Shown here in pieces: positions 3,677 to 59,917 of a stretch of DNA of 64,000 bases (within the stretch, counting starts at the first letter, position 1; every line of letters starts with the position of its first letter). The stretch is taken from NCBI GenBank assembly GCA_049274945.1, contig JBASTP010000006.1:96529-160528 (forward strand), read 5' to 3'. Source of the stretch: Patescibacteria group bacterium. Its GTDB lineage: Bacteria > Patescibacteriota > UBA1384 > GWA2-35-9 > JBASTP01. The position numbers and the translations under genes were made by a program. The notes beneath the pieces are model-generated. The model was not told the origin of the DNA and searched no databases. It was given only the letters and a program-made list of their open reading frames with translations.

Positions 3677-4270
3677 ATGGCCCACACTTCGCAGGAAACC
3701 CAAGGTATCGTTGACTCGCTCACCCGCTTGAGCAAACTCTTTCAAATTCGGGAAGCTCGGCCGCTCACCGACCCTATCCAGGCAGACTTCCTGGCAATTC
3801 TTTTGGCAGTGATCCGGCTAATGCTCGATCTTTCGATTTACCTCTTTATGACCGGGATCCTGGTGATGGGCGTGATTTTCCTCTTTTCAATGGGCAACGA
3901 GGAAACGCTCACGCGCGCCAAACGCACCTTAAACCAATCGCTCATCGGCCTGGCCATGACCTTTTCGAGTTTTGCCGTGCTCGAGTTTTTTATTAGCCGG
4001 CTCTCTGGCCCGCTCGCGTTTGCCCAAGGTGCCAATATTGCGATCGTTTTTGGGAGGGCTTATAATCTAGTGCTTATTGCCGCGGGTTCGGGCCTCGTGA
4101 TCATCTTACTCTATGCCGGGACACGGTACCTGTTTGCCGGCGGCAATGAAGAATCGCAAGAAGGCGCCAAAAAAATGATCAACGCGGCGCTGTACGGTAT
4201 AATTTTGACACTGGGCTCGTTCGCCATTTCACGGCTTTTGATGACCCGGTTTGGAGCGTTACCACAATGA
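3677..4270 (+). CDS. tandem-duplicated pilin-like protein (two pilin modules in one ORF)
   Basis: Two complete TM1 / GNEE / AK[KR] / TM2 modules in one 197-aa ORF: MGNEETLTRAKRTLNQSLIGLAM and AGGNEESQEGAKKMINAALYGIIL. Confidence 0.6.
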   Translation: MAHTSQETQGIVDSLTRLSKLFQIREARPLTDPIQADFLAILLAVIRLMLDLSIYLFMTGILVMGVIFLFSMGNEETLTRAKRTLNQSLIGLAMTFSSFAVLEFFISRLSGPLAFAQGANIAIVFGRAYNLVLIAAGSGLVIILLYAGTRYLFAGGNEESQEGAKKMINAALYGIILTLGSFAISRLLMTRFGALPQ

Positions 4271-4968
4271 GACAAAAATCAAATATCAAAATTCAAATAT
4301 CAAAATTGGTGGCTGGCATCTCATTAGCTACTGTGCTACTGACAACTGCGCTACCGGCTTTTGCCCAGACGCCGGTTTCCGGCGGCAAGGCGGTCAACGT
4401 AAATTTACGCCAAGTCGCCAGCCAGATCCCATCCAACTTTGTTGAGCTGCCCGGAATCATTGGCCGGATTTTTACCGTCACGATCACCGCGGCAGGAGGG
4501 CTCTTTGTCATCATGCTGCTTTTTGGCGGCATCAACTACCTCACCGGCGCGGGCAACGAAGAATCAACCAAAAAAGCCAAAGGCCGAATCATCGACGCGT
4601 CAATCGGTATTGTGATTACCCTTTCGGCCTTCGCGATCGGCACCTTCATTTTGAACCAATTCTACAAAGGTTCGAGGCCGCCCAGCCAACCGGCAACTAC
4701 TCAACAAACTGGCGCCGGCACGAGCCAAGCAATTAGTTTTAGCGTGCGAGTCCAGGATCAAACGGGTAACCCAGTGAATGGCGCGACGGTGAGCGTGAAC
4801 GGTAACCTCAAGGGCAGAACAAACAGCGGCAAAGTCTCATTCCAGGTTACCCAAGGCCCGGGCAGCTACACGGTGGCGGTGTCGTCTGCGGGCTGCGATT
4901 CCCACTCCGAGCAAATCCTGATGACCGACCAAGGCTTTGTTGAGATAACCTTGAATTGCGTGGATTGA
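4267..4968 (+). CDS. pilin-like protein with C-terminal Ig-like/carboxypeptidase-regulatory-like beta domain
   Basis: ATGA overlap with the upstream stop. Signal peptide ending AFAQTP, pilin module (GAGNEESTKKAKGRIIDASIGIV), then a C-terminal beta-rich segment (FSVRVQDQTGNPVNGATVSVNGN...SYTVAVSSAGC). Confidence 0.6.
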   Translation: MRQKSNIKIQISKLVAGISLATVLLTTALPAFAQTPVSGGKAVNVNLRQVASQIPSNFVELPGIIGRIFTVTITAAGGLFVIMLLFGGINYLTGAGNEESTKKAKGRIIDASIGIVITLSAFAIGTFILNQFYKGSRPPSQPATTQQTGAGTSQAISFSVRVQDQTGNPVNGATVSVNGNLKGRTNSGKVSFQVTQGPGSYTVAVSSAGCDSHSEQILMTDQGFVEITLNCVD

Positions 4969-17157: not shown

Positions 17158-17242
17158 GGTGGGTTGGCAGAATGGCATCGCACACGCCTCGAAAGCGTGC
17201 GCCCGCAAGGGCTTGCAGGTTCGAATCCTGCACCCACCGCCA
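17158..17242 (+). tRNA. tRNA-Ser (anticodon CGA)
   Basis: Acceptor stem GGTGGGT/ACCCACC. Anticodon loop CUCGAAA gives anticodon CGA. Long variable arm CCCGCAAGGG. T-arm GCAGGTTCGAATCCTGC. Discriminator G plus an encoded CCA. Confidence 0.7.
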
Positions 17243-19441: not shown

Positions 19442-19704
19442 TGGCGTGGATCAAAGCTTCAAATCTACTAGGTAAATATGCCGGGAACCGTCAGTTTCAC
19501 GCTGCGTATATTTGTAGCGTGGCCCAACAGGTCCTGGGCAATGAAGCGGTTGTGGTGAGCTTTCGAGACGGCAAGCTAGTTCTTGCTATCGTCTCATCGG
19601 CCCAAGCAGCGAGTATCCAGATTCAGTCAGACCAAATTCGTAAGGCGATCAACGAAAAATTGGGGCAGGAATTTGTCACAAGGTTTCGGTTCCGTGCCAG
19701 CTAA
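19438..19704 (+). CDS. DUF721-like small protein (DciA-like)
   Basis: 88 aa. LGNEAVVVSFRDGKLVLAIVSSAQAASIQIQSDQIRKAINEKLG resembles the DUF721 core. ATGA overlap with pilB. Confidence 0.35.
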   Translation: MMAWIKASNLLGKYAGNRQFHAAYICSVAQQVLGNEAVVVSFRDGKLVLAIVSSAQAASIQIQSDQIRKAINEKLGQEFVTRFRFRAS

Positions 19705-20687
19705 GCACGGAGTATTGCGCACTGCTCTATAAAACCTTCGTTGAAACTATTAAACCGCGATTGCTGGGTAGCAGGGTCATAGCTGTTATTAGGTAGACCA
19801 AGCACTCTGACGATCTCCCGATCGCAGGTTTCCGGCCTTGGGCGTGCCCTAATCTCATGAACCGAACGGTTTGCTGCTTGGCATCCTTCTTTTTTGGCGA
19901 TTCCTTCAAGACCGCTCGTTACTGTTGGACAGCTCGGTGGTTGCGCTGGCGGGGCGAGCGCCTCGGGGCCGTAGAGCGAAACGAGAAAGGCCGACATCAT
20001 AAACACGGTGGCAATGCCAAAGATCGCCCCGGCGATCATTTCTTTGGCGTGTGCGGTCGCCTCCGGCGACCCGCCGGAGTTCAAGTAACCGAACCCGGCG
20101 TAGACCACCACGAGCGTGGCCGCCACCACCGAGAGCACCATCGCCACCTTGACGAGATCGGTGAGGTAGTCGCCGAGAGTTTGGTAGGTTTTCCCTCTGA
20201 AGATGGGGCTCAAGTCCGGGGAAGTGTAGCTGATGATGCCCGATCTGCTGGGGGTACTCGATTGAGGCGTGTAGTTGGTGTTGCCGGCGATATTGAGTTT
20301 GATAATCGGGACATTGTTTGCTCCCGTTTTTTGCGCGGTGAATGTGGCAGTGGCTGTGGCGGTTAAGGGATTAGGCGCCGTGACCGTTAGCAGAATACGG
20401 AGGGTGTTGTTACCGCCAAATTCTGTTTCCGGGATGTCAAAATGGAAACCACCCTGCTCACCAGTTGATGTTGATTTAGGGAAGAATCGGCTTGGTCCAG
20501 TATCAGCGCGGGTGACCGTAACTCCGGCTCTCTCGATTGCCTTTTGGTCAATGCTGCTCGCAACAGTGCCGGCAACGCGCGCATCGGCAGCTCGTACCGA
20601 GCTCATAAACGAGAGCGCTAAGAAGACGGCTAAAAATGCAGCGAGCGATATTTTTTTAATTTTGAAATTGCATTTTGACTTTTGCAT
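19701..20687 (-). CDS. pilin-like protein with N-terminal Ig-like beta domain and Cys-rich C-terminus (paralogue 7)
   Basis: Start moved to the ATG at 20687 (MQKSKCNFKIKKISLAAFLAVFLALSFMSSVRA signal peptide). The track start at 20924 would overlap the giant gene. C-terminal pilin module YAGFGYLNSGGSPEATAHAKEMIAGAIFGIATVF, then a 4-Cys tail. Confidence 0.55.
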   Translation of the reverse strand: MQKSKCNFKIKKISLAAFLAVFLALSFMSSVRAADARVAGTVASSIDQKAIERAGVTVTRADTGPSRFFPKSTSTGEQGGFHFDIPETEFGGNNTLRILLTVTAPNPLTATATATFTAQKTGANNVPIIKLNIAGNTNYTPQSSTPSRSGIISYTSPDLSPIFRGKTYQTLGDYLTDLVKVAMVLSVVAATLVVVYAGFGYLNSGGSPEATAHAKEMIAGAIFGIATVFMMSAFLVSLYGPEALAPPAQPPSCPTVTSGLEGIAKKEGCQAANRSVHEIRARPRPETCDREIVRVLGLPNNSYDPATQQSRFNSFNEGFIEQCAILRA

Positions 20688-20712
20688 TTTGAGGTTTGAG
20701 TTTGAGGTTTCG

Positions 20713-23700
20713 TTAAAACCCGATATGAACATGTTGGGTAACCAATGGGGAGATACTGATACCCTGGCGGTTTTCCTTGGATGGGGCATCTTCATTGAAG
20801 ACTTGTTTGTAGCGGTCAGAGCCAAAGAAGGCGAGCAGGTCTTGCTGTCGGGCGGTAATGATCTGAACCGGTTTTGTTGAAAAGTCAGGTTCCTTTTGCC
20901 GCACGCCCACGAAGTTTTTGTCAATAAAGTAATAGGGCATCTCCATCATATCAGAAATCAAACCGTTGACTCGGACCCGGGCAGCCTGTTTAAGCCCTGC
21001 GCGGTACTCGGTCGCCGCCATGCCGTTAAACTCGGGCAAGCCAATCGCGAGATTTGGGTTGAGAGGCTCAATTTGCGGGTAGTAGCCGTCGCCGGTGCAC
21101 AGCACAAAGATTTTTACCTTGTTGAAGCCAAAAAGGTTGAGGGCGATAAAAAGGCCAAGCGTAATCGGGTTTAAGGCCGCGCCCATCAGCGCCGCGATGC
21201 CCATGCCGATCAAGATTGCGCCGGTGCCTGGCACGAGGCCGAGCGCTTGCTCCATCTGCCCCACCTGTTTGGCAAACACGATCGTAACAACAATCGTAAT
21301 CATTAGGGTATAAGCATCACTAAGTTTCGACCCGGCATCCTGAATCGCCGGATTACCTAAGGTAAAGGTGCTTTGAGCTGCCGCAAATGCTGCTTTGGCG
21401 TGGAGGAAGTTTTGAGTGGCAAAGTAGATTTGGGCGGCATTGCCGACTTGCCAGCCCATTTTACTGTCAAGAAATTGGAAGGCTTGCGAGACTGCCCACT
21501 GGCCGTAGATGCCGACAATTGTTCCCGGAGTATTGAGGTTGCCCAGCGCTCCGGTGCGGCCGTACTGGAACAGCGCCTGGGTAGTGCCCGGCTTCCACAG
21601 GTCGCCAAAGAGTTTCTTTTGGATCACAAACTGATCGAGTGAGCCGAGCGCGCCGGTTTGCACCAGCCTGTCATAGTTTTGCCCCGAAGAATCACGAAGG
21701 TACGCTCGGGCGGCATCGAGCGACCCCTGCGCTAAATGAATGCCAAGAATGTTGTGGTTATTAATCAGGTTTTCCGCGTAATTTAGGAGCGAGGTGGTGC
21801 GCTCTTGGGTGGTGCCTTCGAACATCGCCCGAGCAAACCCAGCAGGAATGTTGATGTCGGCTTTGTAGAGTTGGTTGTCGATTAGGCGAAATTGGAATTC
21901 ACTCTTGCGTTGGGAGCGAACTCTACTCCGTTCGTTCTCGGTTTCGGCGGCAGCTTGGGCTTGGGCGAGGACTCGTTGTTGCGCTTCGTCAGTCACACCC
22001 GATTCCTCGGCGAATCTTAGCGCGCTATTGTAGGCATCTTCGCGGAACGCCTCGAGGCGGCTCTCATCGTCAGCCGGCGCGCGCAGCGAATTGACAATTA
22101 CCTCATAGGTAATCTGGCGGTCTGGCGGCAGAAGATTGCCGTTTTTATCTTTGTTGAGCGAGCCCGCCATGTCAGCGGCGGCGACAAAGCCCAAAAAGCG
22201 CATGTCGCCATGGATCAGTGATTGAATATCGCTATCTGGCATAACAATACCACCGCGGCCTTGCCGATCTTGGGTGCGCGTAAAAATTTCGCTGCGCGCC
22301 GCGAGCGTAAACTCATTTTCAGCGGCATCTCTGACGACTTGCGGCTGGCGAGTTGCATCAGCCTCAAAGGAAATATTAAAGACACGCGAGAGCGGCCCGT
22401 CGTGCACGCCATCGTTCAAGCCAAATTGGTTTTCGAGCTTGAAGACCCCCTCGGTTAGGAAGACTTTCCGCGCGTTTTCCGGTTCTGCGGCAATGAGCGA
22501 GAAGGTGCCGGTGCGCACCCCAAGCTTGCTGTCAAATCTGATGCTGAATACGGTATCGAGCGCGCTGTAAAATGATTGGCGATCTTGTGGCCGCCAAGCA
22601 GCAACGTCGGTCACTGAGTTGCGTCGCAGTAAATCAAAAACGATCGGAAACTGGGAATTGAAATTGTCCCTGGCCGTGCCCTCAAGTCCAAGCACATCCG
22701 CTAACCGATCAATCAGCGCTGTCGAACGGGCAAGCGTGTCTGCAATCGAGAAGTCCCCCACCTTCTTGGCATAATTCGCCGGACTAAGCTCACCCTTCAG
22801 CAATTTTTCGGTAGCGCCGATTTCAAGCCGCAGTTTTTCGTCAACCTCTTCAATGGTTAGTTCCTTTTGTTCGTTTGCGACCTCGCCGCGCCGGAACTGA
22901 TCAATAATTCTCCAAGCGCCGTCTCGGCTTATCGCGTTGCCGTTTACTCGGCTAAGGTATGCCAAGGCGGCGTTTTGGGGGCCTATGGTAGTGATCGACT
23001 GAGGCAACGAGAGAGTTTCAATCGCTCGCCCCAGCTCGCCAGGATCATAGCCCTCAAGAGACAGGCCGTTGGGGTGACCGGTCATCCGGAACGCGATCGC
23101 AAAATTAATCGGCTGGTTGCGCTCGATTACCTTATCGAGCGAATCGCGGAAGGTGCCGGGCTGCAGGCCAAGCGTTGCCTCAACCGCGTAGCGTCCTTGG
23201 ATTTCCTCCGGCACGCCAAAGATCGGCAGCGCCCCGATGCCTAAAAGATTGCCGAAGTAGTGCGATGCTACATCGGCCATGGCCAACCGCTTGTCGTCGG
23301 AGGAGGGGGCATGGAGCAGTTGGTAGAATACACTTTGGGGCAGATCGAGCACTTGCTCAAACTTCTGCGCGGCCACCCGTTCAAACACCGGCCTGCCACT
23401 ACCTGAGAGCATGTCGTAGATGTCGTAGGGGGTAAAACTAAGCCCGCCGAACTCTACGTTGATCCCCAGCAGGTTAACACCGCGCAGGAGCAGCACCTCT
23501 TTACCCACTCGTTCAAAGTACTGATCGGCTGTCAGTTCTTGGGTCGCCAGACGACTTGTGATTGATCGTCTGCCCGTTCCGATTCCCAGGATCGCATCGA
23601 TCTGTTCCGGTGTGTTTTGAGCGAGCGCTACGCGAATGGGTTGGCGGCCGAAATACTGCTCGTACTGGGCGCGCCCCACTGCCCTGAAGAACGTCTCGGG

Positions 23701-26382
23701 AGATTGCTCCCGCTCCTTGAGCGTGTAGAAGATTGCCCGCGGCGGCAGCTCGAGCGAATTTTCAACTTGTCGTGCGCCAATTGAGAGTGCCAAATCTTTG
23801 GTGGCGCGTCGGCCATTCAACCAATCAAATAAGTCTCGAGCGGCAATAAGGTTGTTTGAGCGGCCGCGCTTGCCCGTTTGACTGTAATCGGCAAGCCTTA
23901 CATCGCTGATTTGTCTTGCGGGCGTGCCACTCACAAGTTCCTCGATATCACGGTACATTGCGCTGAGCTCATTTTGGATTTGAGTGCGCAGAGCTTGTTC
24001 ATTGAGCGGCCCGACGGCGCTTGAAATAGCATCGAGCGATCGCGAGATTTGTCTCACTGCGTTCGCCGAGTTTTGGAAATTAAGCGGGCTGCGGAAAAAC
24101 TGATCAAGACTGGATTTGATTGTGTTAACTTCAGTTCTAATGGCTGGGTCGCTCGTTGCCGCTCTGGTGAGTTGGTCTAAATTATCATTACGATTTTTGA
24201 GATCATCAAAACGGCTGCGGCGAAAATCATATGAGGCTCTGGCCTCGGCAATTTCTGGGTGCTCGGCCAAGAGTTCCTGCTCCCTATTATTGATTGCTTG
24301 TTGCACTTCGGTAGTATTTTGGATTGCCTGCACAAGCCTATCGCGGCCGATGCGTTTAAAAATAGGGACAGCGCCTTGGCCGGAGAAGATGCGAGCAAAT
24401 TCCCCGGGCCGCAACTTCGTCAATGACATAATTGTTCGTTCAGGGATTTGCCAATCGTTTGACGGATTTTCAAAAAAATTATTAATCGCCGAACGATCAC
24501 CATCGTTCGGCGACAATTGATTAACGAGCGCCTGACGGCCAATTACGGCAAGCACGGTTTGGTCACCATTCAATAATCTTCTGATAGTGCCAGCCGGTGT
24601 TGCATAAAAACTATTTTCTTGTGACTGTTCACTGTTCACAAAGTTGCGGAATGAGCCAAAGTTGTCATTGAGCAGTTTACTGCCAATCGCTCGTTTGTAA
24701 TCCGCAACACGGCCATTCAAGAAATCGGAAGCAGTCTTGCCATACGGCAACCCGACGAGTTCATCAATTGCGCTGGGTGATGAGGCAAACATAATTTGAA
24801 TTTTACGTTCGCCAAGTTGTCGTTTAAGCGTTGTCAAATCATTCGCCGCGAAGCTCCCCGCGGGCAATTTCATTTTAGTTTCGATCATTGCCTCGCCGAT
24901 TTTTTCCTCAAGCGCTGGACGCGAGTTCCAGGTACCCTGAAGGGTGTTTTCTTTAAGCCCAAGTTCTGACTCAAGTTTGCGGCGGCCAACCGAGGTCAAG
25001 ATCTCGCTAGCGTTATTACCACGCAGTGAGCCAATCGGGAGACCTAAGCGTTGTTCGATCGTAAATCGGCCTACTGAGTATTGGATATCATCAATTGTGT
25101 TGCCCTCAATCGCCTGTCGAGGCAAACCGAGCCGGTCAGCTAATACGGCACGGCCAAAGAGCTCCACGGTATCGCCTAGGGATGACCCGTCAAGGCCACG
25201 GCCGCCAATTGCCGATTCAATGAGGTGGCGGCCAATAAAGTCTGCCATATCCTGGAGGTTGGCGTAGCGCAAGCTGCCGTCATCGCCTAAATCATTGACG
25301 TCAAATTCAGAGAGCGTATCAAGCAGGGCATTTTGAATAAGATTTTGAGTGAGGTCGTTGATCGAGAGCCCCGGTGGGTTTTCTTGCGCCACGCCTTGGT
25401 CGGTTTGATAGCTCACTTTGATAGGTTTGGGCGGGAGTTTTTGGCGGTTGACCTTGCGGAGGATGATGCCCTTTTTGACCACTACCTTACTGCACTTAAT
25501 CGTTTCGATTTCCGAGATATCGAACGCCTGGCCTTGAGCATGGAGCGAGATGTTATCGGCCCCCTCGGTTTCTTTTGAGAGTGTCTTCTCGCGCAACGGT
25601 TTGCCGCTTTTGGGGTCCCGGGCCGTGTAGTTTTTCCAGATTCTGGCCACCTTAATGCGTTCGTGGCCGCCGCCGTCTTGCGCGCGCGGCGTGATGAGCC
25701 AGGCAAGGGCATCAACCACTCGACGATCGAGCGGGAAGTTCTGTTTGGTTTTTTGAACCAACTGATCGCCCGGCAGGTCACTCGCAAATACGATGCCTTC
25801 CAGGAAATCGCTCACCTCAATGGCCTCGCGTTGTTGCTCGATCAGTCGTTCGAGTGAGCTAAGAGCAACGCGCGATCGGTCGGTGAATATCTTGGTTTGA
25901 GTCTCTCGAACAAGCTCCAGCACTTGGTTTCTGCGCACTTCGTCCTGGAGCACGGCCCCTACCCCTTGCTCACCCTCAAAGCCCAGCTCGATTAGCTTTT
26001 GTTTGAAGTCGTTGAAGGTTGCCTGATCTTCTGCCGATACGTTGCTCGTGTTCTTGGTGTACTGGTCAGGATCAAGGTGGGCGCGCAGGATCGCGGCGTC
26101 TCGCGGGTCTAGGATGAGTTTGCCTTCTCTGGTGATCGGGTTTTTGAGTGCATCGAGTGTATCAGTGAGGGTGGCAAGTAGCGGTTCGGCCGTTTCACCG
26201 GGCGCCTCATTTGGATCAAGCGGATCGCTGTCGCCCTCACTGCCTAGTTCTTGGGCATAAACTGGTTTGGCAAACAAGGTCAGCGGGCTCACTTTTGGAT
26301 CAACTAACCAACTTGCGAATACCAATTCCGTGAGAATGAATCCAAGGATGATGCCCCGAATTATTAGACTCGTACTTTTCAT
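20713..26382 (-). CDS. giant (~1890 aa) secreted/membrane-anchored protein of the T4SS-like operon
   Basis: The ATG at 26382 (MKSTSLIIRGIILGFILTELVFASWLV signal/anchor) overlaps the upstream stop as ATGA. The TTG at 26427 is less likely. Long, mostly hydrophilic body. Several C-terminal hydrophobic helices (…ITIVVTIVFAKQ…GTGAILIGMGIAALMGAALNPITLGLFIALNLFGF…). Confidence 0.5.
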   Translation of the reverse strand: MKSTSLIIRGIILGFILTELVFASWLVDPKVSPLTLFAKPVYAQELGSEGDSDPLDPNEAPGETAEPLLATLTDTLDALKNPITREGKLILDPRDAAILRAHLDPDQYTKNTSNVSAEDQATFNDFKQKLIELGFEGEQGVGAVLQDEVRRNQVLELVRETQTKIFTDRSRVALSSLERLIEQQREAIEVSDFLEGIVFASDLPGDQLVQKTKQNFPLDRRVVDALAWLITPRAQDGGGHERIKVARIWKNYTARDPKSGKPLREKTLSKETEGADNISLHAQGQAFDISEIETIKCSKVVVKKGIILRKVNRQKLPPKPIKVSYQTDQGVAQENPPGLSINDLTQNLIQNALLDTLSEFDVNDLGDDGSLRYANLQDMADFIGRHLIESAIGGRGLDGSSLGDTVELFGRAVLADRLGLPRQAIEGNTIDDIQYSVGRFTIEQRLGLPIGSLRGNNASEILTSVGRRKLESELGLKENTLQGTWNSRPALEEKIGEAMIETKMKLPAGSFAANDLTTLKRQLGERKIQIMFASSPSAIDELVGLPYGKTASDFLNGRVADYKRAIGSKLLNDNFGSFRNFVNSEQSQENSFYATPAGTIRRLLNGDQTVLAVIGRQALVNQLSPNDGDRSAINNFFENPSNDWQIPERTIMSLTKLRPGEFARIFSGQGAVPIFKRIGRDRLVQAIQNTTEVQQAINNREQELLAEHPEIAEARASYDFRRSRFDDLKNRNDNLDQLTRAATSDPAIRTEVNTIKSSLDQFFRSPLNFQNSANAVRQISRSLDAISSAVGPLNEQALRTQIQNELSAMYRDIEELVSGTPARQISDVRLADYSQTGKRGRSNNLIAARDLFDWLNGRRATKDLALSIGARQVENSLELPPRAIFYTLKEREQSPETFFRAVGRAQYEQYFGRQPIRVALAQNTPEQIDAILGIGTGRRSITSRLATQELTADQYFERVGKEVLLLRGVNLLGINVEFGGLSFTPYDIYDMLSGSGRPVFERVAAQKFEQVLDLPQSVFYQLLHAPSSDDKRLAMADVASHYFGNLLGIGALPIFGVPEEIQGRYAVEATLGLQPGTFRDSLDKVIERNQPINFAIAFRMTGHPNGLSLEGYDPGELGRAIETLSLPQSITTIGPQNAALAYLSRVNGNAISRDGAWRIIDQFRRGEVANEQKELTIEEVDEKLRLEIGATEKLLKGELSPANYAKKVGDFSIADTLARSTALIDRLADVLGLEGTARDNFNSQFPIVFDLLRRNSVTDVAAWRPQDRQSFYSALDTVFSIRFDSKLGVRTGTFSLIAAEPENARKVFLTEGVFKLENQFGLNDGVHDGPLSRVFNISFEADATRQPQVVRDAAENEFTLAARSEIFTRTQDRQGRGGIVMPDSDIQSLIHGDMRFLGFVAAADMAGSLNKDKNGNLLPPDRQITYEVIVNSLRAPADDESRLEAFREDAYNSALRFAEESGVTDEAQQRVLAQAQAAAETENERSRVRSQRKSEFQFRLIDNQLYKADINIPAGFARAMFEGTTQERTTSLLNYAENLINNHNILGIHLAQGSLDAARAYLRDSSGQNYDRLVQTGALGSLDQFVIQKKLFGDLWKPGTTQALFQYGRTGALGNLNTPGTIVGIYGQWAVSQAFQFLDSKMGWQVGNAAQIYFATQNFLHAKAAFAAAQSTFTLGNPAIQDAGSKLSDAYTLMITIVVTIVFAKQVGQMEQALGLVPGTGAILIGMGIAALMGAALNPITLGLFIALNLFGFNKVKIFVLCTGDGYYPQIEPLNPNLAIGLPEFNGMAATEYRAGLKQAARVRVNGLISDMMEMPYYFIDKNFVGVRQKEPDFSTKPVQIITARQQDLLAFFGSDRYKQVFNEDAPSKENRQGISISPLVTQHVHIGF

Positions 26383-27596
26383 GGGAATGTTAGGTAGTAT
26401 GCGTTGGGGTAGCGGCCGCCGAACCAACGTTCATCGTCAATCAAATGAACCGGTGAATTTTTTTCTCGATAGGCTTGGGGCAGTTTGATCCGTGCACGGC
26501 CGTCCTTTGAACCAGGGTCGTTGACATAGGCCTCGCGGCCGTCCTCGGAGAAACCAACAATCGTCAGGAAGTGACTGCCCTTATTGGAGAAGTTCGTGCC
26601 GATTACCACCGGCGTTTTGGTGCGATCTACGATATCCCGGATTGTACGCCAGTCTTGATCAGACGGCCCCATCTTGCCAGAGCGGCTGCCGCCCAGCACA
26701 ATTTTTTCCACTTTGGCGTTGGGCAGACCTGCCTGGCTGGCGGCAAAACGGAGATAGCCCCCGGTATCTTTCGGGCAACTCCTCGGTGGATCAGTTCGAC
26801 CTGCTATAATTTTTTCTTCAAGCTCGCGGGGGTAGCTTTTCTTCTCAGGTGGTCCAGAACTTTTGTCGTATGCATGGTAGAGCACTGCCATCATCGCTGC
26901 GTAGTAGTTGCAAGTAGTCGAGTTGACTGGTTGGAGCCGCCAGGGCACCTTGAGGCGCTTTGAACCGCCAGGCAAGAACAGTTCGGCAGTAAGAAACTCA
27001 AAGCGCAAACCGAGGGCGTGGAGTTGCTGGAGTAAATTGTCTTGGCTACCAAGGTCGCTTGTCCCGCGAATTTTTTTGGCGAGTACCTCCATCTCCCGTA
27101 ATAGGTTGATCGCTTCGGTCCGCTTATCCTCAGCAATGTTAGCTCTGCGTAGACCCTCAATTGCTGTGTAAACTCGCGCATCGAGTTGACGCGACTCGAT
27201 CAACTCTCGTTGAAGGGTCGGGATCAGTCCCGCCGCTGACTGGACTCGCAGCAGGTTTTCCCGATCAACGCTATTTTCGCCGTTGAACGGTTCCGGCTCG
27301 TGGGTGCCCTGGGCTCTTAATAACCTTGAAGGTTGCCGATAGTACACAAAAAACGCCGCTCCGGCGATGAGCACCACCACGATGATCATTATGACTGCGG
27401 CAATCGGTCCGAGCGCCAATAGAGCCGCAAACGCAAACTGGATCCCCGCCTGGACGACCGGGATGACCATCTTTAGTTTATTGAGCGTACCGGCTATCGT
27501 ACGGAGTTGGTTAAGCTTGTCCTCAAATTCTCGCCGGGTCTGGCGGTAGCGCGTCGGCTCCTCCGAATCATCACTGATTGTTGGTTCATCGGCCAT
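26379..27596 (-). CDS. membrane-anchored papain-fold Cys peptidase (CHAP/C39-like), putative cell-wall hydrolase
   Basis: AAGGGGGTG RBS. N-terminal TM segment, coiled-coil region, then a C-terminal domain with candidate catalytic Cys (NSTTCNYYAAMMAV) and His (KGSHFLTIVGFSEDG) followed by Asp/Asn (AYVNDPGS). Confidence 0.45.
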   Translation of the reverse strand: MADEPTISDDSEEPTRYRQTRREFEDKLNQLRTIAGTLNKLKMVIPVVQAGIQFAFAALLALGPIAAVIMIIVVVLIAGAAFFVYYRQPSRLLRAQGTHEPEPFNGENSVDRENLLRVQSAAGLIPTLQRELIESRQLDARVYTAIEGLRRANIAEDKRTEAINLLREMEVLAKKIRGTSDLGSQDNLLQQLHALGLRFEFLTAELFLPGGSKRLKVPWRLQPVNSTTCNYYAAMMAVLYHAYDKSSGPPEKKSYPRELEEKIIAGRTDPPRSCPKDTGGYLRFAASQAGLPNAKVEKIVLGGSRSGKMGPSDQDWRTIRDIVDRTKTPVVIGTNFSNKGSHFLTIVGFSEDGREAYVNDPGSKDGRARIKLPQAYREKNSPVHLIDDERWFGGRYPNAYYLTFP

Positions 27597-31833: not shown

Positions 31834-31863
31834 TTGACTATTGAACCTAATTGTTTGTATTAT
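31834..31863 (+). promoter_or_regulatory. putative sigma70-type promoter of metK (possibly leaderless)
   Basis: TTGACT (31834-31839), an 18-nt spacer, then TATTAT (31858-31863). The metK ATG at 31871 lies only 7 nt downstream of the -10 element, and there is no SD. Confidence 0.3.
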
Positions 31864-31870
31864 ATCACCT

Positions 31871-33025
31871 ATGCATCGACTTTTCACTTCAGAGTCAGTC
31901 ACCGAAGGCCATCCGGACAAGATTTGCGACCAGATCAGTGATGCCGTTTACGACGAAATGCTTCGTCAGGACAAAAAAACTCATGCCGGCATTGAATGTT
32001 TTGTCACTACCGGGTTGGTAGTGGTTGGCGGGGAAGCCCGCACCAAGGGTTATGTGGACATTCATGAAATCGTGCGCCGCACCCTGAAGAGAATCGGCTA
32101 CGATAAACCCGAGTATGGTTTTTGCTACACCGACGTCGGGGTGATTTCCACGCTCCACGAGCAGTCGCCGGATATCGCCCAAGGGGTGGACAAAAACCGC
32201 GGAGAATTCAAAGAACAGGGGGCGGGTGATCAAGGCTTGATGTTTGGTTTTGCCTGTGATGAGACAAAAGAACTCATGCCGCTACCCATTACCCTGGCAC
32301 ACGGTTTGACTCGCCGATTGGCCCAAGTCCGTAAAAATGGCAAGTTGCCGTATCTGCGACCAGATGGCAAATCACAAGTGAGCGTTGAATATTTGGATAA
32401 CAAACCGAATCGGGTTACTGCAGTAGTGATCGCGGCCCATCATTCAGAAGGCGTGACGACCGAGAAATTGCGCGGTGATATTAAAAAATTTGTCATCAAA
32501 CCGGTATTAGGAAAATGGCTTTCGCCTCAAACCAAGATATTTATTAACGCTACTGGCAGATTTGTGCTCGGCGGCCCGCCGGCGGATGCTGGCTTGACTG
32601 GCCGGAAAATTATTGTTGACACCTACGGCGGCTATGCGCCGCACGGCGGCGGTTGTTTTTCAGGGAAATGCGTAACCAAGGTGGACCGAAGCGCGGCGTA
32701 CGCGGCCAGATACATTGCCAAAAATATCGTGGCAGCCGGGTTGGCAAAAAAATGCCTGGTGCAATTAGCCTACGCCATTGGCGTGGCTAAGCCAGTATCC
32801 GTGATGATTGATACCTACGGGACCGGTGCAGCGGCCGATGGGGATTTGGAAAAATCCGTGGAAAAGATTTTTCCGCTGAAGCCCGCTGATATTATCCGCG
32901 TGCTCGATCTGGAGCGACCTATATATGAACAAACCGCGGCGTACGGCCACTTCGGCCGCCCCGATTTAGATCTCCCGTGGGAAAAAACGAATAAGGTTAA
33001 TGAGCTCAGGCGAGCGATTCGTTAA
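31871..33025 (+). CDS. metK: S-adenosylmethionine synthetase
   Basis: [26 protein letters not shown]. Glycine-rich [17 protein letters not shown]-terminal GGGCFSGK. Confidence 0.9.
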
Positions 33026-54459: not shown

Positions 54460-55458
54460 ATGGCAGATATGGTAGTTTTGGGTTCAATAGGGATCGATAC
54501 GATCGAGACGCCATATGGCAAAGTGGTCGGTGGGTTGGGCGGTTCGGCGGTATATGCGGCATTAGCGGCCCTGAGCGTTAGTCGAAGGGCGGCGAAGGTG
54601 GCGCTTACTTCGGTGGTGGGCGATGATTTCCCGGATAAGCACCGCAAGTTCCTGCAGTCACAGGGCATTGCGCTCGACGGCCTGGTTACCGTGGACACTC
54701 CCACCTTCCGCTGGCACGGCCGCTACCAGTTCGATATGGGCGTGGCGGAGACTGTGAAAACAGATTTAGGTTCGCTCGCGTATGGAAAAGAGGTTATTAC
54801 GGGTTACCAGATGTTACTCGATTCGCCAACACCGGGAGTTGATAAAGGTGTAACGTCTGGATATAAACCTTCATTTCTCCTCCTCGCCAACTTTGACCCC
54901 GAAGTGCAACTCCAGATTATCCAAGCCAGCCCCCAGCCTCTCGCCCCTTTTGTTATTCTCGATACCATGAACTTTTGGATTAAAAACAAAAACGAAGCGC
55001 TGCGCGCCGCGATCCAGCACGTTGATGCGCTGGTGTTGAACGAGAACGAGGCGCGGGAGTTCTTTGGCACGCCAAATCTGGTGAAGGCGGGCCACGGCGC
55101 GCTCGAGTTAGGGCCGGAGTACGTGATTATCAAAAAAGGCGAGCACGGCAGCATGCTCTTTTCCGAACACGGGTTCTTTGCCGTGCCCGGCTATCCGTTA
55201 CTTTCACCGGTTGATCCCACCGGCGCCGGCGACAGCTTCGCCGGCAGTCTCGCGGGCGTGCTCGCCCGCGAGGGGTTTCATGGAACAGGTTTAAAGTTTA
55301 AGGGGGTTACATTCAACCACATGCGGAAAGCGGTCGTATATGCCACAGCGGTTTCAAGCTTCACCGTGGAGGGCATGGGGGTGTCGCGGCTGGCAGCACT
55401 CAAACCAGTGGAGATCAAGGAACGAGTCGAGGTATTCCAAAAGATGCGACAGTTCTGA
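54460..55458 (+). CDS. PfkB-family carbohydrate/nucleoside kinase (candidate adenosine kinase)
   Basis: PfkB signature DPTGAGDSFAGSLAGVLA and N-terminal GG motif (VGGLGGSAVYAA). The gene sits immediately upstream of ahcY, 12-nt gap. Confidence 0.7.
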   Translation: MADMVVLGSIGIDTIETPYGKVVGGLGGSAVYAALAALSVSRRAAKVALTSVVGDDFPDKHRKFLQSQGIALDGLVTVDTPTFRWHGRYQFDMGVAETVKTDLGSLAYGKEVITGYQMLLDSPTPGVDKGVTSGYKPSFLLLANFDPEVQLQIIQASPQPLAPFVILDTMNFWIKNKNEALRAAIQHVDALVLNENEAREFFGTPNLVKAGHGALELGPEYVIIKKGEHGSMLFSEHGFFAVPGYPLLSPVDPTGAGDSFAGSLAGVLAREGFHGTGLKFKGVTFNHMRKAVVYATAVSSFTVEGMGVSRLAALKPVEIKERVEVFQKMRQF

Positions 55459-55472
55459 TATACTCAACCTCT

Positions 55473-56786
55473 ATGTATAAGATCAAAGACATCAAACTTG
55501 CCCCGCAAGGTGAGAAAAATATCGCTTGGGCCGGGGAGCAGATGGGCGCGCTAGAGCGCCTTAAGGAAGAACTTGCCAAGACCAAGCCATTTAAGAATCT
55601 GGTGATCGGCTGCGTGCTCCACGCCACCAAGGAAACCGCCAACCTGGTACGCACCCTCGAGGCGGCGGGCGCCTACGTGGTGCTCGGGCCCTCAAATCCG
55701 CTGTCGACTCAAGACGACGTGGTGGCGGCGCTGGCAAAATCAGGCACACCGGTGTTTGGTTGGAAAGGCATGAACCGTAAGGAGTATTACGATGCCCTGC
55801 TCTCGGTTGTAAACCACTTAAAAACTCAAAGCCTTAACGCCTCAAAGCCTTCGATTGTCACGATCGATGACGGGCTCGATTTGGTTTCGCTCATCCATTC
55901 CAAATATACTGAACTTATCCCCCACATTATCGGCGGCGCCGAGGAAACCACCACCGGCGTGAACCGGCTGCAGGCCATGGAGGCCGATGGCGCGCTCCGG
56001 TACCCCATGGTGGCGGTCAACGAGAGCCGCACCAAGCACCTGATGGATAACTACATCGGCACCGGCCAATCGACGATCGACGGCATTCTGCGGGCCACCG
56101 GCGGCGTGCTCCTGGCTGGCAAGGTGTTTGTGGTGGCTGGCTTTGGCGAGTGCGGCAAAGGCGTGGCGGCGCGAGCCGATGGCATGGGAGCCCGCGTCGT
56201 GGTGGTTGAGGTTGATCCCTTCCGGGCGCTCCAGGCTACTATGGAGGGCTACGAGGTACTGAAGATGAGCGAGGCTGCCAAAGTTGGTGACATTTTTGTA
56301 ACGGTAACCGGCGGCAAGCACATTATTTCAGCCGAACATTTAGCGAACATGCCAGACGGTGCGATTGTCGCGAATTCTGGCCACTTTGATATTGAGATCG
56401 ACGTGGCCGGCTTGAAAAAGATGGCAAAGAAAATTGTCGAGATCCGTTCGCAACTCACCGAATATACCCTCAAAGCCTCAAAGACTCAAAGCCTCAAAGA
56501 CTCAAAGACTCAAAGACTCTATCTCCTCGGCGAAGGCCGGCTCGTTAACCTGGCGGCGGCCGAGGGCCACCCTTCAACCATTATGGCCATGAGTTTTGCC
56601 AATCAGACGCTGGCCGTTGATTTTCTCAACAGGAACCAGGGCAAGCTAGAACCAAAAGTATATGTTCTACCGAAAGAGGTTGACGATCGAATCGCCAAAC
56701 TTCAGCTTCAGGCCATGGGCATAATGATTGACGCGCAGAGTGATGAGCAAAAAAAGTACTCCGAGTCCTGGCAGGAAGGGACCTAG
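55473..56786 (+). CDS. ahcY: adenosylhomocysteinase (S-adenosyl-L-homocysteine hydrolase)
   Basis: Conserved N-terminus (IKDIKLAPQGEKNIAWAGEQM), NAD-binding GFGECGKGVAARADGMGARVVVVEVDP, and HFDIEIDV. Carries an in-frame repeat-encoded insertion (see repeat feature). Confidence 0.85.
   Translation: MYKIKDIKLAPQGEKNIAWAGEQMGALERLKEELAKTKPFKNLVIGCVLHATKETANLVRTLEAAGAYVVLGPSNPLSTQDDVVAALAKSGTPVFGWKGMNRKEYYDALLSVVNHLKTQSLNASKPSIVTIDDGLDLVSLIHSKYTELIPHIIGGAEETTTGVNRLQAMEADGALRYPMVAVNESRTKHLMDNYIGTGQSTIDGILRATGGVLLAGKVFVVAGFGECGKGVAARADGMGARVVVVEVDPFRALQATMEGYEVLKMSEAAKVGDIFVTVTGGKHIISAEHLANMPDGAIVANSGHFDIEIDVAGLKKMAKKIVEIRSQLTEYTLKASKTQSLKDSKTQRLYLLGEGRLVNLAAAEGHPSTIMAMSFANQTLAVDFLNRNQGKLEPKVYVLPKEVDDRIAKLQLQAMGIMIDAQSDEQKKYSESWQEGT
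56472..56519 (+). repeat. tandem 8-nt repeat (CAAAG[C/A]CT x6) inside ahcY
   Basis: tcAAAGCCTCAAAGACTCAAAGCCTCAAAGACTCAAAGACTCAAAGACTct encodes LKASKTQSLKDSKTQR. A related pair CTCAAAGCCT...CTCAAAGCCT sits at ~55828-55858 in the same gene. Confidence 0.7.
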
Positions 56787-59700
56787 GGCGCCGGCGCAGG
56801 AGGAGGAGTGGCAGGTGCAGGAGTTGGGGGTGCCGGTTTTTCTGTTAGTTCGTTAATCAGGGCGGCTTGGAAGAGCCGCAGCTGGTAGTATAGCCATTTT
56901 GGGCGGTCTTCCTGCCCCATTTCATACTCGGGCGGGTGGCCGACAATCATTGGCATGGTTTGGGTTGGGCTCACGCGCACATTGAGTACTCGGCGCTCTC
57001 GTTTGGTTGCACACTGGCGCCATAGGTCGGTTTCCTCCCACTGCGATTCAGGCACCTCGTCCAGATACTTGAACTTTTTCTTGATGTCCAGATATTCCTG
57101 GTCAGTCAACTCTCGTTTGGTCTGGCCGGTTTCATCCTTATAGTGATAGTCGAACCGCGGCATGGGCTTGTCTTCCTTTTGGATTGGGGTGAACTTTTTG
57201 AGCGCTTGTTCTACCTCGCCGCGGACGTTTTTAAGATGCTCGATCCTAATAGCCTCTGCGTCAGCATTATTTTCTGGCTCGGGCAGCTTAGTCTTGATTG
57301 GTTTAATATCAGCTAACCAATCCTCAAGATCCCACATCACATTCAGTAATACGCGTTTTTGTTCATAAAAGGTGCGGATTTTTGCAAAATCCTGAAAAAG
57401 CTTCTGGTAGTGGCGATTGTGGGCATTAGTGTAGGCAGGTTCGTCTTGCGGGTTTGCCACGGTCGGCCGCTGAAGTTTAAAAATAGTATCGGTTAGGGTG
57501 TGAAGATCGTCCGGGTCGTCCAATAATAATCGCTTGATTTCCTGCGGGTTTTTCTTGATTATGCGTTTGAGTTCGGCGTTAATTGCCAGCTGCTCAATGC
57601 CGTCTTTTTTATCATTCCCACCCTCAACCAATTTTTCCCTGAGGTTTGCCTCGCCGTGTTCAACCGTGGCAAGCTTTTTAGCGGTTTCTTCCGGGTCATC
57701 CTCGGCGCTCACGATTGGATTCTTGGCAACAATCTCATTCGCTGCCTCGGCATCCGCGTCGTACTTAGCCGCTTCTTGCCTTTGCTTCACGGCCGCGAGT
57801 TCTTTTTCTTTGAAAAAATGGATGTGGTGGAGGAATCGGTCATAGGCCGGGATCGGGGTACCGCCTTTGGCCTTGTGCGCTTCATATTCTTCAGCCTGTT
57901 TAGAATAGTGATCAACCGCGCGTTTTTGAGCAAGTTTAAAGTGCTCTGAAGAAAAGGGGTCGCGAATGTCACCAGAAGTTCCTACTTTGTATTTGATGCC
58001 ATGATATTCTAGTTTTGGATTGTTGATTAACTGACTCATCGCCACGAGCCGGGCGATCATGAGTACCTGGTCGGGGTCGAGTTTGAACCACCCTTGGCTT
58101 TTGTCCTCTTTGGATCGGTGAAAGTTGGCGGTTTGGCTGACCTGCTCGACAAAGTCTTTGTCCATTAAGTTGAGAAAATTGTTGGTTTCCTCTTGGTATT
58201 GGTCGCGGTGGCCCTGCCACCCTTTGAGCTTAAATGGTTCGTCATCAGGATTGCCAAAGGTTTCATCTATCTCAAACTGGCCCCGCGTGCCGTCAGCCCG
58301 CTCACATTCCATCCACTCGTAGGCCTCCTGGGCAACGGCCAGCAGATCACGCATTGATCGCTTATCAATTTCATCAAGCGCGGCCTCTTCCCAAACTTCC
58401 CGAGAAACCCGTTTGATCCGTCTCCGGCCGCCGGCAATGCGCGCTTGGATCGGCGCGTACTCGCCTGGCTTGGTGCCGTGGCGCTTGCCGACGTGCGAGA
58501 TCCGGAGACACTGCACGATGAAGCTGTATTTTTCGAGGGTGATCTCTTCACCGTTGGTTTTGCGGTAGAGCGGATCGAACTGGTAGAGGAACATGTGGTA
58601 AACCCACCAGCGCGAGTCGCCGGTGTGGGCCATCGATTTAATCAGGGTGCGTGCGCCGAACTCGTCGTGGTTTTCAAAGAAGGTTTTGAGCCGTTTGTGC
58701 CGGTCGGTAACGTGCTCGTCGCGGGCCAGCACTTTGCTGACTTCTTTGTCTTCGAACTCCACCAAGGTTCGTTCATACCAGTCGGTTTGTTTGTAGGGCA
58801 CCAGTTCTCGAAGCGCCATCAACATGCGCTCCGAGGCTTCTTCTCTGAAGGCGCTGATTTTTTGCATAAATTTGATCGATCGGCCCCACAACCCAATATA
58901 GTTATTGCCGGCGAACTCAAATTTGGTGTCGAGTTTTTCGGTCCTGGTGTCGGTGTTGAGTCGCTTACGGAGGTCATCGGACCCGGTCGCGGTTTTCAGA
59001 TTCTCGAACACTTTTTTGACTGCATTATAGCCTTCCGGTGCCAGGCGTTGACACTCGGTTGGGTCGGTTAAATAGAGCGCAACAAAATCTTTCCACTCCG
59101 GCGCCCGCTGCTCAAGCACCCGGACAGACCTGGTGTATTCTTTCCATGCGGTTGGTTCATGGAGCAGGGCGCCGACCATGCGTCCGAGCTGGAACATTAC
59201 CTTATCAACGCGGGGCACCTGCTTGCCGCCTTGTTTTTCTGTCATCAGCAGGCCCGGCCCGAATCGGAACACAATCTTACCTGTATCGGCTACTTTCAGC
59301 TCGTCGTCTTTGAGATCCGGGTCGTATTCGATCTTGCAGTGCTCCTCAAAGAAAGCGCGCAGGTGGGCCGGGATTACCCGTTTGATGAGGAGCCTGATTT
59401 CATCGTCGTCTAAAAATGGATCTTCGGCCCCCAGGCGCGCTTCGGCTGAGGTTTGAAACATTTCCCGAGTGAGTTTATCAAGCTCCTTTTGTTGGTCTTC
59501 TATGTCTTCGTCTGAAGCGTTGATTTGGCGGAGTCTCTCGAGCTTCGAAACTTCTTTGTCGTAGGCCTCCGTCTTTTCTTTGAGGATACGGTATTTCTCC
59601 ATTCGGTTTGGAGGGGTGAAGCCCTTGATTTCAACCTTAGGGGCGGTTTTCAGTTCTTCCTTAAACTCGTTGGAATGGCGATGGTATTTGATTTCTGCCA

Positions 59701-59917
59701 GTTTCTGCTTCCGGTCTGCTTCGTTGAGTGTTTGTCCTTTTTCTTGTTCAATCTTGCGAATCGCATCGCGTTGCGCGTGGATTTCTTTCATAAACCTACC
59801 AAACGCATTCATCGCGGTTTCACGCGAAGACTTACCCGCCACTCGCAGCGGTGATCGTTCTACCCAGGCGGGTTGATTTTCAGATTCTTCCTTGTGGGCT
59901 AACGCTCCTTGACTCAT
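56783..59917 (-). CDS. hypothetical large hydrophilic protein (1044 aa) with Pro-rich C-terminus
   Basis: No TM segments or catalytic motifs recognised. Lys/Glu-rich. C-terminal KPAPPTPAPATPPPAPAP. Last gene of the VirB6-like operon. Confidence 0.45.
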   Translation of the reverse strand: MSQGALAHKEESENQPAWVERSPLRVAGKSSRETAMNAFGRFMKEIHAQRDAIRKIEQEKGQTLNEADRKQKLAEIKYHRHSNEFKEELKTAPKVEIKGFTPPNRMEKYRILKEKTEAYDKEVSKLERLRQINASDEDIEDQQKELDKLTREMFQTSAEARLGAEDPFLDDDEIRLLIKRVIPAHLRAFFEEHCKIEYDPDLKDDELKVADTGKIVFRFGPGLLMTEKQGGKQVPRVDKVMFQLGRMVGALLHEPTAWKEYTRSVRVLEQRAPEWKDFVALYLTDPTECQRLAPEGYNAVKKVFENLKTATGSDDLRKRLNTDTRTEKLDTKFEFAGNNYIGLWGRSIKFMQKISAFREEASERMLMALRELVPYKQTDWYERTLVEFEDKEVSKVLARDEHVTDRHKRLKTFFENHDEFGARTLIKSMAHTGDSRWWVYHMFLYQFDPLYRKTNGEEITLEKYSFIVQCLRISHVGKRHGTKPGEYAPIQARIAGGRRRIKRVSREVWEEAALDEIDKRSMRDLLAVAQEAYEWMECERADGTRGQFEIDETFGNPDDEPFKLKGWQGHRDQYQEETNNFLNLMDKDFVEQVSQTANFHRSKEDKSQGWFKLDPDQVLMIARLVAMSQLINNPKLEYHGIKYKVGTSGDIRDPFSSEHFKLAQKRAVDHYSKQAEEYEAHKAKGGTPIPAYDRFLHHIHFFKEKELAAVKQRQEAAKYDADAEAANEIVAKNPIVSAEDDPEETAKKLATVEHGEANLREKLVEGGNDKKDGIEQLAINAELKRIIKKNPQEIKRLLLDDPDDLHTLTDTIFKLQRPTVANPQDEPAYTNAHNRHYQKLFQDFAKIRTFYEQKRVLLNVMWDLEDWLADIKPIKTKLPEPENNADAEAIRIEHLKNVRGEVEQALKKFTPIQKEDKPMPRFDYHYKDETGQTKRELTDQEYLDIKKKFKYLDEVPESQWEETDLWRQCATKRERRVLNVRVSPTQTMPMIVGHPPEYEMGQEDRPKWLYYQLRLFQAALINELTEKPAPPTPAPATPPPAPAP

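Follow-up and report, generated by a model that had tools for sequence, protein, structure and literature searches.

An octanucleotide tandem repeat in the hairpin codons of adenosylhomocysteinase from a Patescibacteria group bacterium

Low-complexity insertions in proteins can arise by replication slippage, a process known under the names of cryptic simplicity and coding microsatellites. The subject of this work is a tandem array of 8-nt units found in ahcY, the adenosylhomocysteinase gene, within a stretch of 64,000 nucleotides from contig JBASTP010000006.1 of a Patescibacteria group bacterium (hereafter the window, meaning the whole stretch that was analysed). The array, termed site 2, occupies the codons of a hairpin turn, and a more degenerate array of the same unit, termed site 1, lies upstream in the same gene. 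The explanation that fits best, with a probability of roughly 0.7, is that site 2 is a slippage-born and recently homogenised coding microsatellite in a permissive hairpin, the length of which is quantised by the reading frame, and that its product is a tolerated hydrophilic loop of a functional enzyme. Slippage as the mechanism and the neutrality of the loop are what we infer from the comparisons presented below.

The locus shares with the low-complexity insertions made by slippage a hydrophilic surface-loop segment encoded by short DNA repeats, with length and sequence varying among relatives. The features by which a slippage-derived loop insertion is recognised, namely tandem-encoded residues, a variable loop and units evolving in concert, are all found. 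The differences concern the unit, which has 8 nt (7, 14, 16 or 21 nt in relatives) instead of 3 or 6, so that the peptide period equals three units, and the fact that the same two loops have been struck repeatedly across the clade. The kind of feature is already known; what is new is a small detail, its recurrence at two loops across the clade. A description of this repeat in AhcY was not found in the literature by searches that were not aimed specifically at such cases.

The second related group is formed by the simple-sequence contingency loci, which switch a gene ON and OFF reversibly with a phenotype exposed to fluctuating selection, host-interaction genes being among the typical carriers. 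In phase-variable genes the repeats concentrate near the N-termini, and the genes encode mostly surface or restriction-modification functions (PMC3315296). The ahcY tract resembles them as a non-triplet tandem array inside an open reading frame (ORF), where a change of one unit truncates the product. It differs from them in the lack of observed copy-number variation, the housekeeping role of the gene, the position of the tract in the last quarter of the ORF, the imperfect units and their decay in relatives. The third relevant system is the insert of about 40 residues in the S-adenosylhomocysteine hydrolases (SAHases, also SAHHs) of plants and most bacteria, which consists of helices alphaA and alphaB in the substrate-binding domain (PMC7765604).

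The array and the enzyme that carries it

Among the 36 rows returned by Tandem Repeats Finder (TRF) for the window, the site 2 array has the highest score (score 88, period 8, 93% matches). Its units follow in the order CTCAAAGC CTCAAAGA CTCAAAGC CTCAAAGA CTCAAAGA CTCAAAGA CTC, and the longest perfect run comprises 3 units. The 15-mer CTCAAAGMCTCAAAG occurs nine times in the window when up to two mismatches are allowed, against 0.32 expected, and none of 100 shuffles reached this number. The shorter motif CTCAAAGMCT has eight exact matches, each within ahcY, with the same expectation of 0.32. The initial annotation had described six copies of CAAAG[C/A]CT at 56466-56520; this repeat is real, being the present array in another register, and the interval encloses it.

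The first nucleotide of the array (56469) is at codon position 1 of the ORF, and the codons read CTC AAA GCC TCA AAG ACT CAA AGC / CTC AAA GAC TCA AAG ACT CAA AGA. The translation, LKASKTQS LKDSKTQR, agrees with the in-frame peptide given earlier. The 8-nt unit is read in all three frames (LKA/SKT/QS), and therefore the periodicity belongs to the DNA and cannot be produced by selection at the protein level. Together with the concerted evolution of the units described below, this supports the original classification as a repeat of the slipped-strand type at the DNA level. An RNA element was also considered for the tract and rejected: no Rfam family overlaps the region, the sole Rfam match in the window being a tRNA at 17158-17239, and the folding is worse than that of shuffled sequences (z=+1.47).

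The host gene encodes the Pfam domains AdoHcyase (PF05221) and AdoHcyase_NAD (PF00670), and its product belongs to the TIGR00936 equivalog, scoring 558.6 bits with a cut-off of 497.6. A phmmer search matched it to the Protein Data Bank (PDB) entry 7r39 with E=1.6e-133. The AlphaFold2 (AF2) model has a mean predicted local distance difference test (pLDDT) of 93.9 and a predicted TM-score (pTM) of 0.90; in Foldseek it superimposes on 7r37, 7r39 and 7o5l with a TM-score of 0.92 and a root-mean-square deviation of 1.6-1.9 Å, showing the two Rossmann-type domains and the C-terminal tail of the SAHH fold. Its sequence matches that of NCBI MFY9484529.1, encoded by a Patescibacteria metagenome-assembled genome (MAG), at 100% identity. 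All columns with no or almost no variation among 120 homologues are kept in it, including H50, T52-T55, D132/D133, E157/E158, T159, T161, N183, K188, D192, N193, H304, N359, H366 and Y429. By the human SAHH numbering, catalytic roles may be assigned to these residues. Judged from sequence and model, AhcY is a bona fide adenosylhomocysteinase and looks fully functional.

The closest solved structures are those of short SAHHs, from Sulfolobus acidocaldarius (7r39), Pyrococcus furiosus (7r37), Methanococcus maripaludis (7r3a) and Synechocystis (7o5l), with which the window protein shares about 50% identity, the TM-score given above, the domain order and the C-terminal tail. It differs from 7r39, 7r37 and 7r3a by 9 additional residues at site 1 and 10-11 at site 2. 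The site 2 array encodes residues 333-348 (LKASKTQSLKDSKTQR) of the NAD-binding domain. In the AF2 model the extension has no predicted secondary structure and forms a coil (335-345) between strands 328-334 and 346-352; the lowest pLDDT of the model (75-76) is found in the two 10-residue blocks covering 331-350. By strand order, site 2 would connect the extra antiparallel strand to the final canonical strand in the Rossmann fold that binds the cofactor (PMC7765604), and the loop would presumably be exposed to solvent in the tetramer. In the alignments with 7r39, 7r37 and 7r3a, the solved chains have a gap of 10-11 residues opposite AhcY ~337-346. Of the description as an insertion in an otherwise canonical AhcY, the canonical enzyme is borne out, and the size is not: 16 residues are repeat-encoded, the net extension is 10-11, and the remainder replaces the ordinary hairpin.

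It had been foreseen that the insertion might prove ordinary by mapping to the known SAHase insert. This identity was rejected, since site 2 lies in the cofactor-binding domain and adds 10-11 coil residues rather than about 40. Long-type SAHase chains align with AhcY in two stretches, with the break near AhcY residues 142-151, between sites 1 and 2, and the window protein is devoid of their insert. Both are lineage-specific additions to a very conserved enzyme, exposed to solvent in the long-type chains and presumably so at site 2; the long-type insert is structured (two helices) and conserved, whereas site 2 is repeat-encoded, variable and adds about 10 residues.

Turnover of the units and recurrence of expanded loops

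The nearest relative available for comparison is a Logan contig from an independent assembly (L001, SRR22387938), which encodes an AhcY of 88% amino acid identity (P0002). At the same codon it carries six degenerate units, 48 nt in total, CTTAACCA CTCAACCT CTCAACGA CTCAACGC CTCAAACT CTAAGCGC, and therefore the insertion is ancestral to the window and L001, with its length unchanged. The same observation bears on the possibility of an assembly or sequencing artefact, which comes to mind as the source is a MAG and the copy number of repeats can be mis-assembled. Such an origin is extremely improbable, given that the insertion recurs, with the same length and in the same codon, in an assembly made independently from another run, that the ahcY ORF is intact, and that the 48-nt tract is shorter than common short-read lengths (a general figure, not that of this sample). 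Two further assemblies (L002 and L003) encode a protein of 78% identity (P0003) and have arrays identical to each other, consisting of 63 nt of ~7-nt units of the ATGCAAA/ATCAAAA type, unlike the array of the window.

The divergence of the two six-unit arrays is about that of neutral sequence. The orthologous site 2 arrays of the window and L001 are identical at 31/48 positions (65%), and the four-fold degenerate sites outside the loops at 59%. The identity between units of the same array amounts to 93% in the window and 67% in L001. Position 6 of the unit is A in all six window units and C in five of the six units of L001; such lineage-specific variants, present in nearly all units, point to concerted evolution. 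When the neutral decay of a perfect array was simulated along one lineage, the mean unit identity fell to 0.59, and the probability of at least 0.93 was 2.5e-5. After the split, slippage or conversion thus rebuilt at least one array, most simply that of the window, again with six units.

Conservation of the length leads to the question whether the loop itself is selected. According to this alternative, the Lys/Ser/Thr/Gln extension and the site 1 loop serve oligomer contacts, the binding of a partner or nucleic acid, or solubility, and the DNA repeat is only their origin. It would account for the 48 nt retained in both lineages despite the turnover of units, for the persistence of expanded loops across several lineages, and for the motif shared by both loops (KTQSLNASK/KTQSLKDSK in the window, ILKSKIINHKS/ILKSKFINPKS in P0072). 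However, the window and L001 proteins agree in only 5 of the 16 residues that the repeat encodes, with the nucleotide divergence at the neutral level, and P0003 has a different array in the same place. The extension is missing in 110 of the 120 homologues, and its pLDDT is low, with no predicted secondary structure. A selected function for the loop is, on this balance, unlikely.

In the family, the site 2 segment (R325-G353) has 16-17 residues in 110 of the 120 homologues and 18-32 in the remaining ten, and the site 1 segment (V112-I131) has 8 residues in 100 and 16-29 in twenty. On a neighbour-joining (NJ) tree built without the loops, the window protein (hairpin of 27 residues) pairs with P0002 (27), followed outwards by P0003 (32) and P0004 (16). 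The other expanded hairpins are placed in separate clades: P0010/P0072 and P0006 with 21 residues, P0008 with 29, P0023 with 21 and P0050 with 20. The ten expanded homologues thus form at least four separate groups, and therefore the hairpin was lengthened independently at least four times. By the alignment, the site 2 hairpin varies repeatedly in this clade and is seemingly a permissive site. The proposal of a tolerated surface loop, made as one of two options at the outset, fits best with a segment that is constant in most homologues, expanded in a few, and modelled as a low-pLDDT coil between strands. Homology of the window and L001 array with that of another homologue (L126) was considered because of a shared CAACCTCT-AAC stretch; the two fall in different NJ clades separated by homologues with canonical hairpins, and the resemblance is treated as convergence.

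TRF was run on ten ahcY genes. In every expanded-loop gene tested, all matches scoring at least 30 fall within one of the two sites and have units other than triplets. In all eight expanded-loop homologues other than the window gene, the extra residues come from tandem repeats of 7, 8, 14, 16 or 21 nt (Table 1). The control gene (L128, encoding P0004) gave no repeats; its hairpin is canonical, and its site 1, although 18 residues long, is non-repetitive. In many family members both loops open with Leu-Lys (CTN AAA). The arrays of L127 and L129 must be recent, because they are perfect.

Two of these homologues deserve a separate description. In L129 (Logan SRR22315506, P0008), the codons of the same hairpin (gene positions 999-1030) contain a 16-nt sequence duplicated perfectly in tandem, and the inverted repeat GGGGAC/GTCCCC is present in each copy. 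The duplication alone shifts the frame, and a compensating change must therefore have accompanied it. In L124 (JGI 3300035099, P0072), the loops at positions ~268-308 and ~916-951 share 29/33 nt (ILKSKIINHKS/ILKSKFINPKS), and its site 1 matches site 2 of the sister gene L125 at 30/33 nt, as counted from the sequences. This likeness indicates that in L124 one loop was copied into the other within the gene, over a distance of ~640 nt.

In the window gene, the units of site 1 are arranged as CTTAAAAA CTCAAAGC CTTAACGC CTCAAAGC CTTCGATT, of which TRF reports 3.2 copies of period 8 at 55825..55850. They encode LKTQSLNASKPS, at the end of helix 102-120 and in the coil 121-126 of the AF2 model, ahead of the strand with the IDDG motif. 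The loop has 18 residues where 100 of the 120 homologues have 8, and is 9 residues longer than in 7r39, 7r37 and 7r3a, the gap lying opposite AhcY ~116-124. A related repeat pair upstream had been noted previously and taken as a possible template for deletion between repeats. The pair, CTCAAAGCCT, does exist; its coordinates required correction to 55825-55834 and 55841-55850, with the first copy 644 nt upstream of the site 2 array, and it belongs to the larger array of site 1. A deletion of this kind, from an upstream to a downstream copy of CTCAAAGCCT, would cost the protein over 200 core residues, and nothing indicates that it has occurred.

Site 1 of L001 contains five units, CTTAAAAT CTCAAACT CTCAACGA CTCAAAAT CTCAAATC (TRF period 8, 4.4 copies). 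The presence of related arrays in both loops allows the alternative that site 2 began as a copy of site 1, ~640 bp upstream, made by ectopic gene conversion or duplication and expanded later, or that the copying went the other way, as opposed to independent slippage at two similar seeds. Such copying has taken place in the distant L124, and in the window the 34-nt family D1, which relates site 1 to registers of site 2, shows 76-82% identity. Nevertheless, the unit identity between the two sites is 0.72 in the window and 0.65 in L001, no higher than the 0.60-0.75 found between the genomes; P0004 has the same site 1 loop length already without repeats, and a shared Leu-Lys seed exposed to the same mutational process explains the resemblance as well. 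Seeding by intragenic copying is therefore regarded as possible, though doubtful. Ongoing gene conversion between the loops in the window lineage was likewise considered and is unsupported, the similarity within the genome being no higher than that between genomes.

Table 1. Coordinates of the repeat tracts and genes of the window, and repeats detected at the two sites in related ahcY genes
Feature	Location	Strand	Repeat unit	Basis
Site 2, 8-nt tandem array	56469..56519	+	6.4 units of CTCAAAG[A/C]	TRF, motif counts vs shuffles
Site 1, degenerate array of the site 2 unit	55817..55856	+	4-5 units	TRF, 34-nt family D1
ahcY, adenosylhomocysteinase, 437 aa, intact ORF hosting both tracts	55473..56786	+		Pfam, TIGR00936, phmmer, AF2
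pfkB-family kinase gene, ends 14 nt before ahcY	54460..55458	+		Pfam PF00294
metK	31841..33025			
ahcY of L001	sites 1 and 2		8/16 nt	TRF
ahcY of L002	sites 1 and 2		7/14 nt	TRF
ahcY of L124	site 1		7/14/21 nt	TRF
ahcY of L125	site 2		7 nt x4.4	TRF
ahcY of L126	site 2		7 nt x4.6	TRF
ahcY of L127	site 1		CAAAACG x3.9, 100% match	TRF
ahcY of L129	site 2		CAGGGGACTGTCCCCA x2.0, 100% match	TRF
ahcY of L130	site 2		CTAACGA x3.1	TRF

Slippage, reading frame and the possibility of switching

The origin of the array may be pictured as follows. The Leu-Lys codons (CTN AAA) at the opening of the hairpin turn, and likewise of the site 1 loop, probably served as the seed. Within the hairpin-turn codons of the cofactor-binding domain, an 8-nt unit would have been expanded by replication slippage or unequal exchange, and purifying selection would filter the array to 3, 6, 9 or further multiples of three units. 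The restriction to three-unit steps results from the essential C-terminal third of the protein (the GEGRLVNL segment, His366 and the tail), which must stay in frame. The product would be a flexible hydrophilic loop of Lys, Ser, Thr and Gln tolerated by the enzyme. The insertion is older than the split from L001, and the near-perfect units of the window are young, having been homogenised after it.

The consequences of unit changes were computed for the window gene. The loss of one or two units gives products of 355 and 367 residues, and the gain of one or two units gives 375 and 363 residues, all of them without the GEGRLVNL segment, His366 and the C-terminal tail. The loss or gain of three units leaves in-frame products of 429 or 445 residues. 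The arithmetic of the initial annotation, in which only changes by multiples of three units preserve the frame, is thus correct.

The same arithmetic underlies the proposal that the tract is a contingency locus. In this scenario, slippage by one or two units turns ahcY OFF and ON, producing a heritable and reversible subpopulation with an altered methyl cycle. The unit length is not divisible by 3, and the tract, with 6.4 units of 8 nt, exceeds the three-unit threshold for octanucleotide tracts in ORFs of one survey (PMC7383803), so that it is long enough to slip; a shift by one or two units removes essential residues. The near-perfect, recently homogenised units speak for a mutationally active tract, and the clade-wide recurrence of non-triplet arrays in ahcY is easier to understand if frameshifted intermediates are tolerated. 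Against this stand the observations on relatives: the unit number is the same in L001, the sole close relative and the only comparable genome pair (a very small sample), so that copy-number variation among close genomes was not seen, and the arrays of the two P0003 assemblies are identical. No truncated near-identical AhcY is present among the matches from a collection of 5.8 billion protein clusters, and no match was obtained when JGI metagenome contigs were scanned with both flanks and variable gaps for 1-8 units; since the organism has been sampled once, both are weak negatives. The perfect run does not exceed 3 units and the arrays are decayed in most relatives, whereas selected mutability would keep long perfect arrays. 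Finally, the tract lies at 76% of a housekeeping ORF, away from the N-terminal region in which phase-variable repeats are enriched (PMC3315296). The contingency interpretation of the initial annotation is therefore not upheld and is considered improbable, and the accompanying suggestion of a modulation of the methyl cycle is not supported.

The preferred explanation, a slippage-born array in a tolerated loop, is not without difficulties, and several points weigh against it. If only third codon positions are free to change, the homogeneity of the window array has P=0.074 and is not very improbable; decay of this kind is contradicted because it needs a conserved peptide, yet the orthologue shares few of the repeat-encoded residues. 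Both lineages have the same six-unit length despite the turnover, which could reflect selection on loop length and some function; the return to six units is less surprising because only multiples of three are viable. The tract may at present have an elevated slippage rate with ON/OFF consequences. Moreover, arrays of 7-, 8- and 16-nt units cannot gain single units without a break of the frame. Non-triplet build-up implies multi-unit slips, compensating pairs of changes or tolerated null intermediates, for which a neutral loop alone is insufficient.

The last of these options can be extended into a scenario for the whole clade. As its two loops were rebuilt from non-triplet units (7, 8 and 16 nt), the lineages would regularly go through intermediate states null for ahcY, from which further slippage would restore the gene. 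The gene would then be transiently dispensable and in effect phase-variable in episymbionts with minimal metabolism, and the tract of the window would be 'armed'. This scenario is speculative and, in our estimate, has little chance of being correct.

Genomic context and significance

The metK gene and the pfkB-family kinase gene, mentioned previously in connection with the methyl cycle, are indeed in the window along with ahcY (Table 1). For the kinase, none of the NCBIfam equivalogs reaches its own cut-off. The gene order PfkB-AhcY is retained in L001, L128 and L129, and the two genes are likely co-transcribed; the kinase belongs to the context and is outside the repeat feature. On the other side, a convergent ORF of 1044 aa without a Pfam match (56783-59917, minus strand) overlaps the stop codon of ahcY by 4 nt, and a 15-nt repeat at 56796-56824 encodes the C-terminus of its product, which is rich in Pro and Ala. 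A minus-strand convergent gene is also called right after ahcY in L001, L002 and L003 (a correspondence of position).

Beyond P0002 and P0003, the closest AhcY homologues are about 60% identical, and most of those with a named source come from DPANN archaea (Woesearchaeota, Nanoarchaeota, Aenigmatarchaeota) rather than from typical bacteria. This distribution hints at a shared ancestry of the enzyme, or at its transfer, between two groups of ultra-small organisms.

Non-triplet repeats occur elsewhere in the window. At 4273-4307, in the ORF 4267-4968 on the plus strand, five 7-nt units (CAAAAAT CAAATAT CAAAATT CAAATAT CAAAATT) encode codons 3-13 (MRQKSNIKIQISKL) of a protein with the T4SS_pilin domain (PF18895), which correspond to the charged n-region preceding a hydrophobic segment (signal or anchor). 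This position, at the 5' end of a gene for a surface protein, is more classical for a contingency locus than that of the ahcY tract. A second example is found at 20659-20710 on the minus strand, where A-rich 7/14-nt repeats (ACCTCAAACTCAAACCTCAAAATGCAAAAGTCAAAATGCAATTTCAAAATT on that strand) straddle the likely ATG of the ORF 19701-20687, taking in both the initial codons (MQKSKCNFKIKK) and the 25 nt that separate this ORF from the upstream ORF of 1904 aa (20713-26427, minus strand). The gene in question is a second T4SS_pilin-like gene, which at 26.3 bits narrowly misses the Pfam cut-off (26.6). The three T4SS_pilin-type genes (3677-4270 and 4267-4968 above the cut-off, 19701-20687 below it) adjoin the 1904-aa ORF and a TraG/VirB4-like P-loop ATPase (PF19044; 28823-30613, minus strand), an arrangement that suggests a cluster resembling type IV secretion or a pilus.

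Genome contigs were also scanned for related arrays in other organisms. For CTCAAAGNCTCAAAGNCTCAAAG, the matches listed include arrays in unrelated taxa (Thermoanaerobaculia, Ignavibacteria, Bartonella and others) and no Patescibacteria locus, so that the scan is uninformative on this genome. Long CTCAAAGN tandem arrays are present, among the matches listed, in unrelated bacteria (L006, L040, L041, L050, L052, L056, L068 and others). They include those of Bartonella choladocola, with 7 consecutive pattern matches, B. apihabitans, Yersinia nurmii, Paraburkholderia ribeironis and Acetobacter orleanensis, as well as several loci in single Thermoanaerobaculia MAGs.

Should switching take place at the ahcY tract, an uncultivated symbiont would be inactivating a central enzyme of its methyl cycle stochastically, which would be an unusual case. 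If the preferred explanation is true, annotators should not label such tracts phase-variable as a matter of course, and the locus would be of use also when Patescibacteria enzymes are modelled or expressed. In that case ahcY would provide a clean example of slippage lengthening the loops of a highly conserved enzyme, in which selection on the frame restricts an array of non-triplet units to unit numbers divisible by three.

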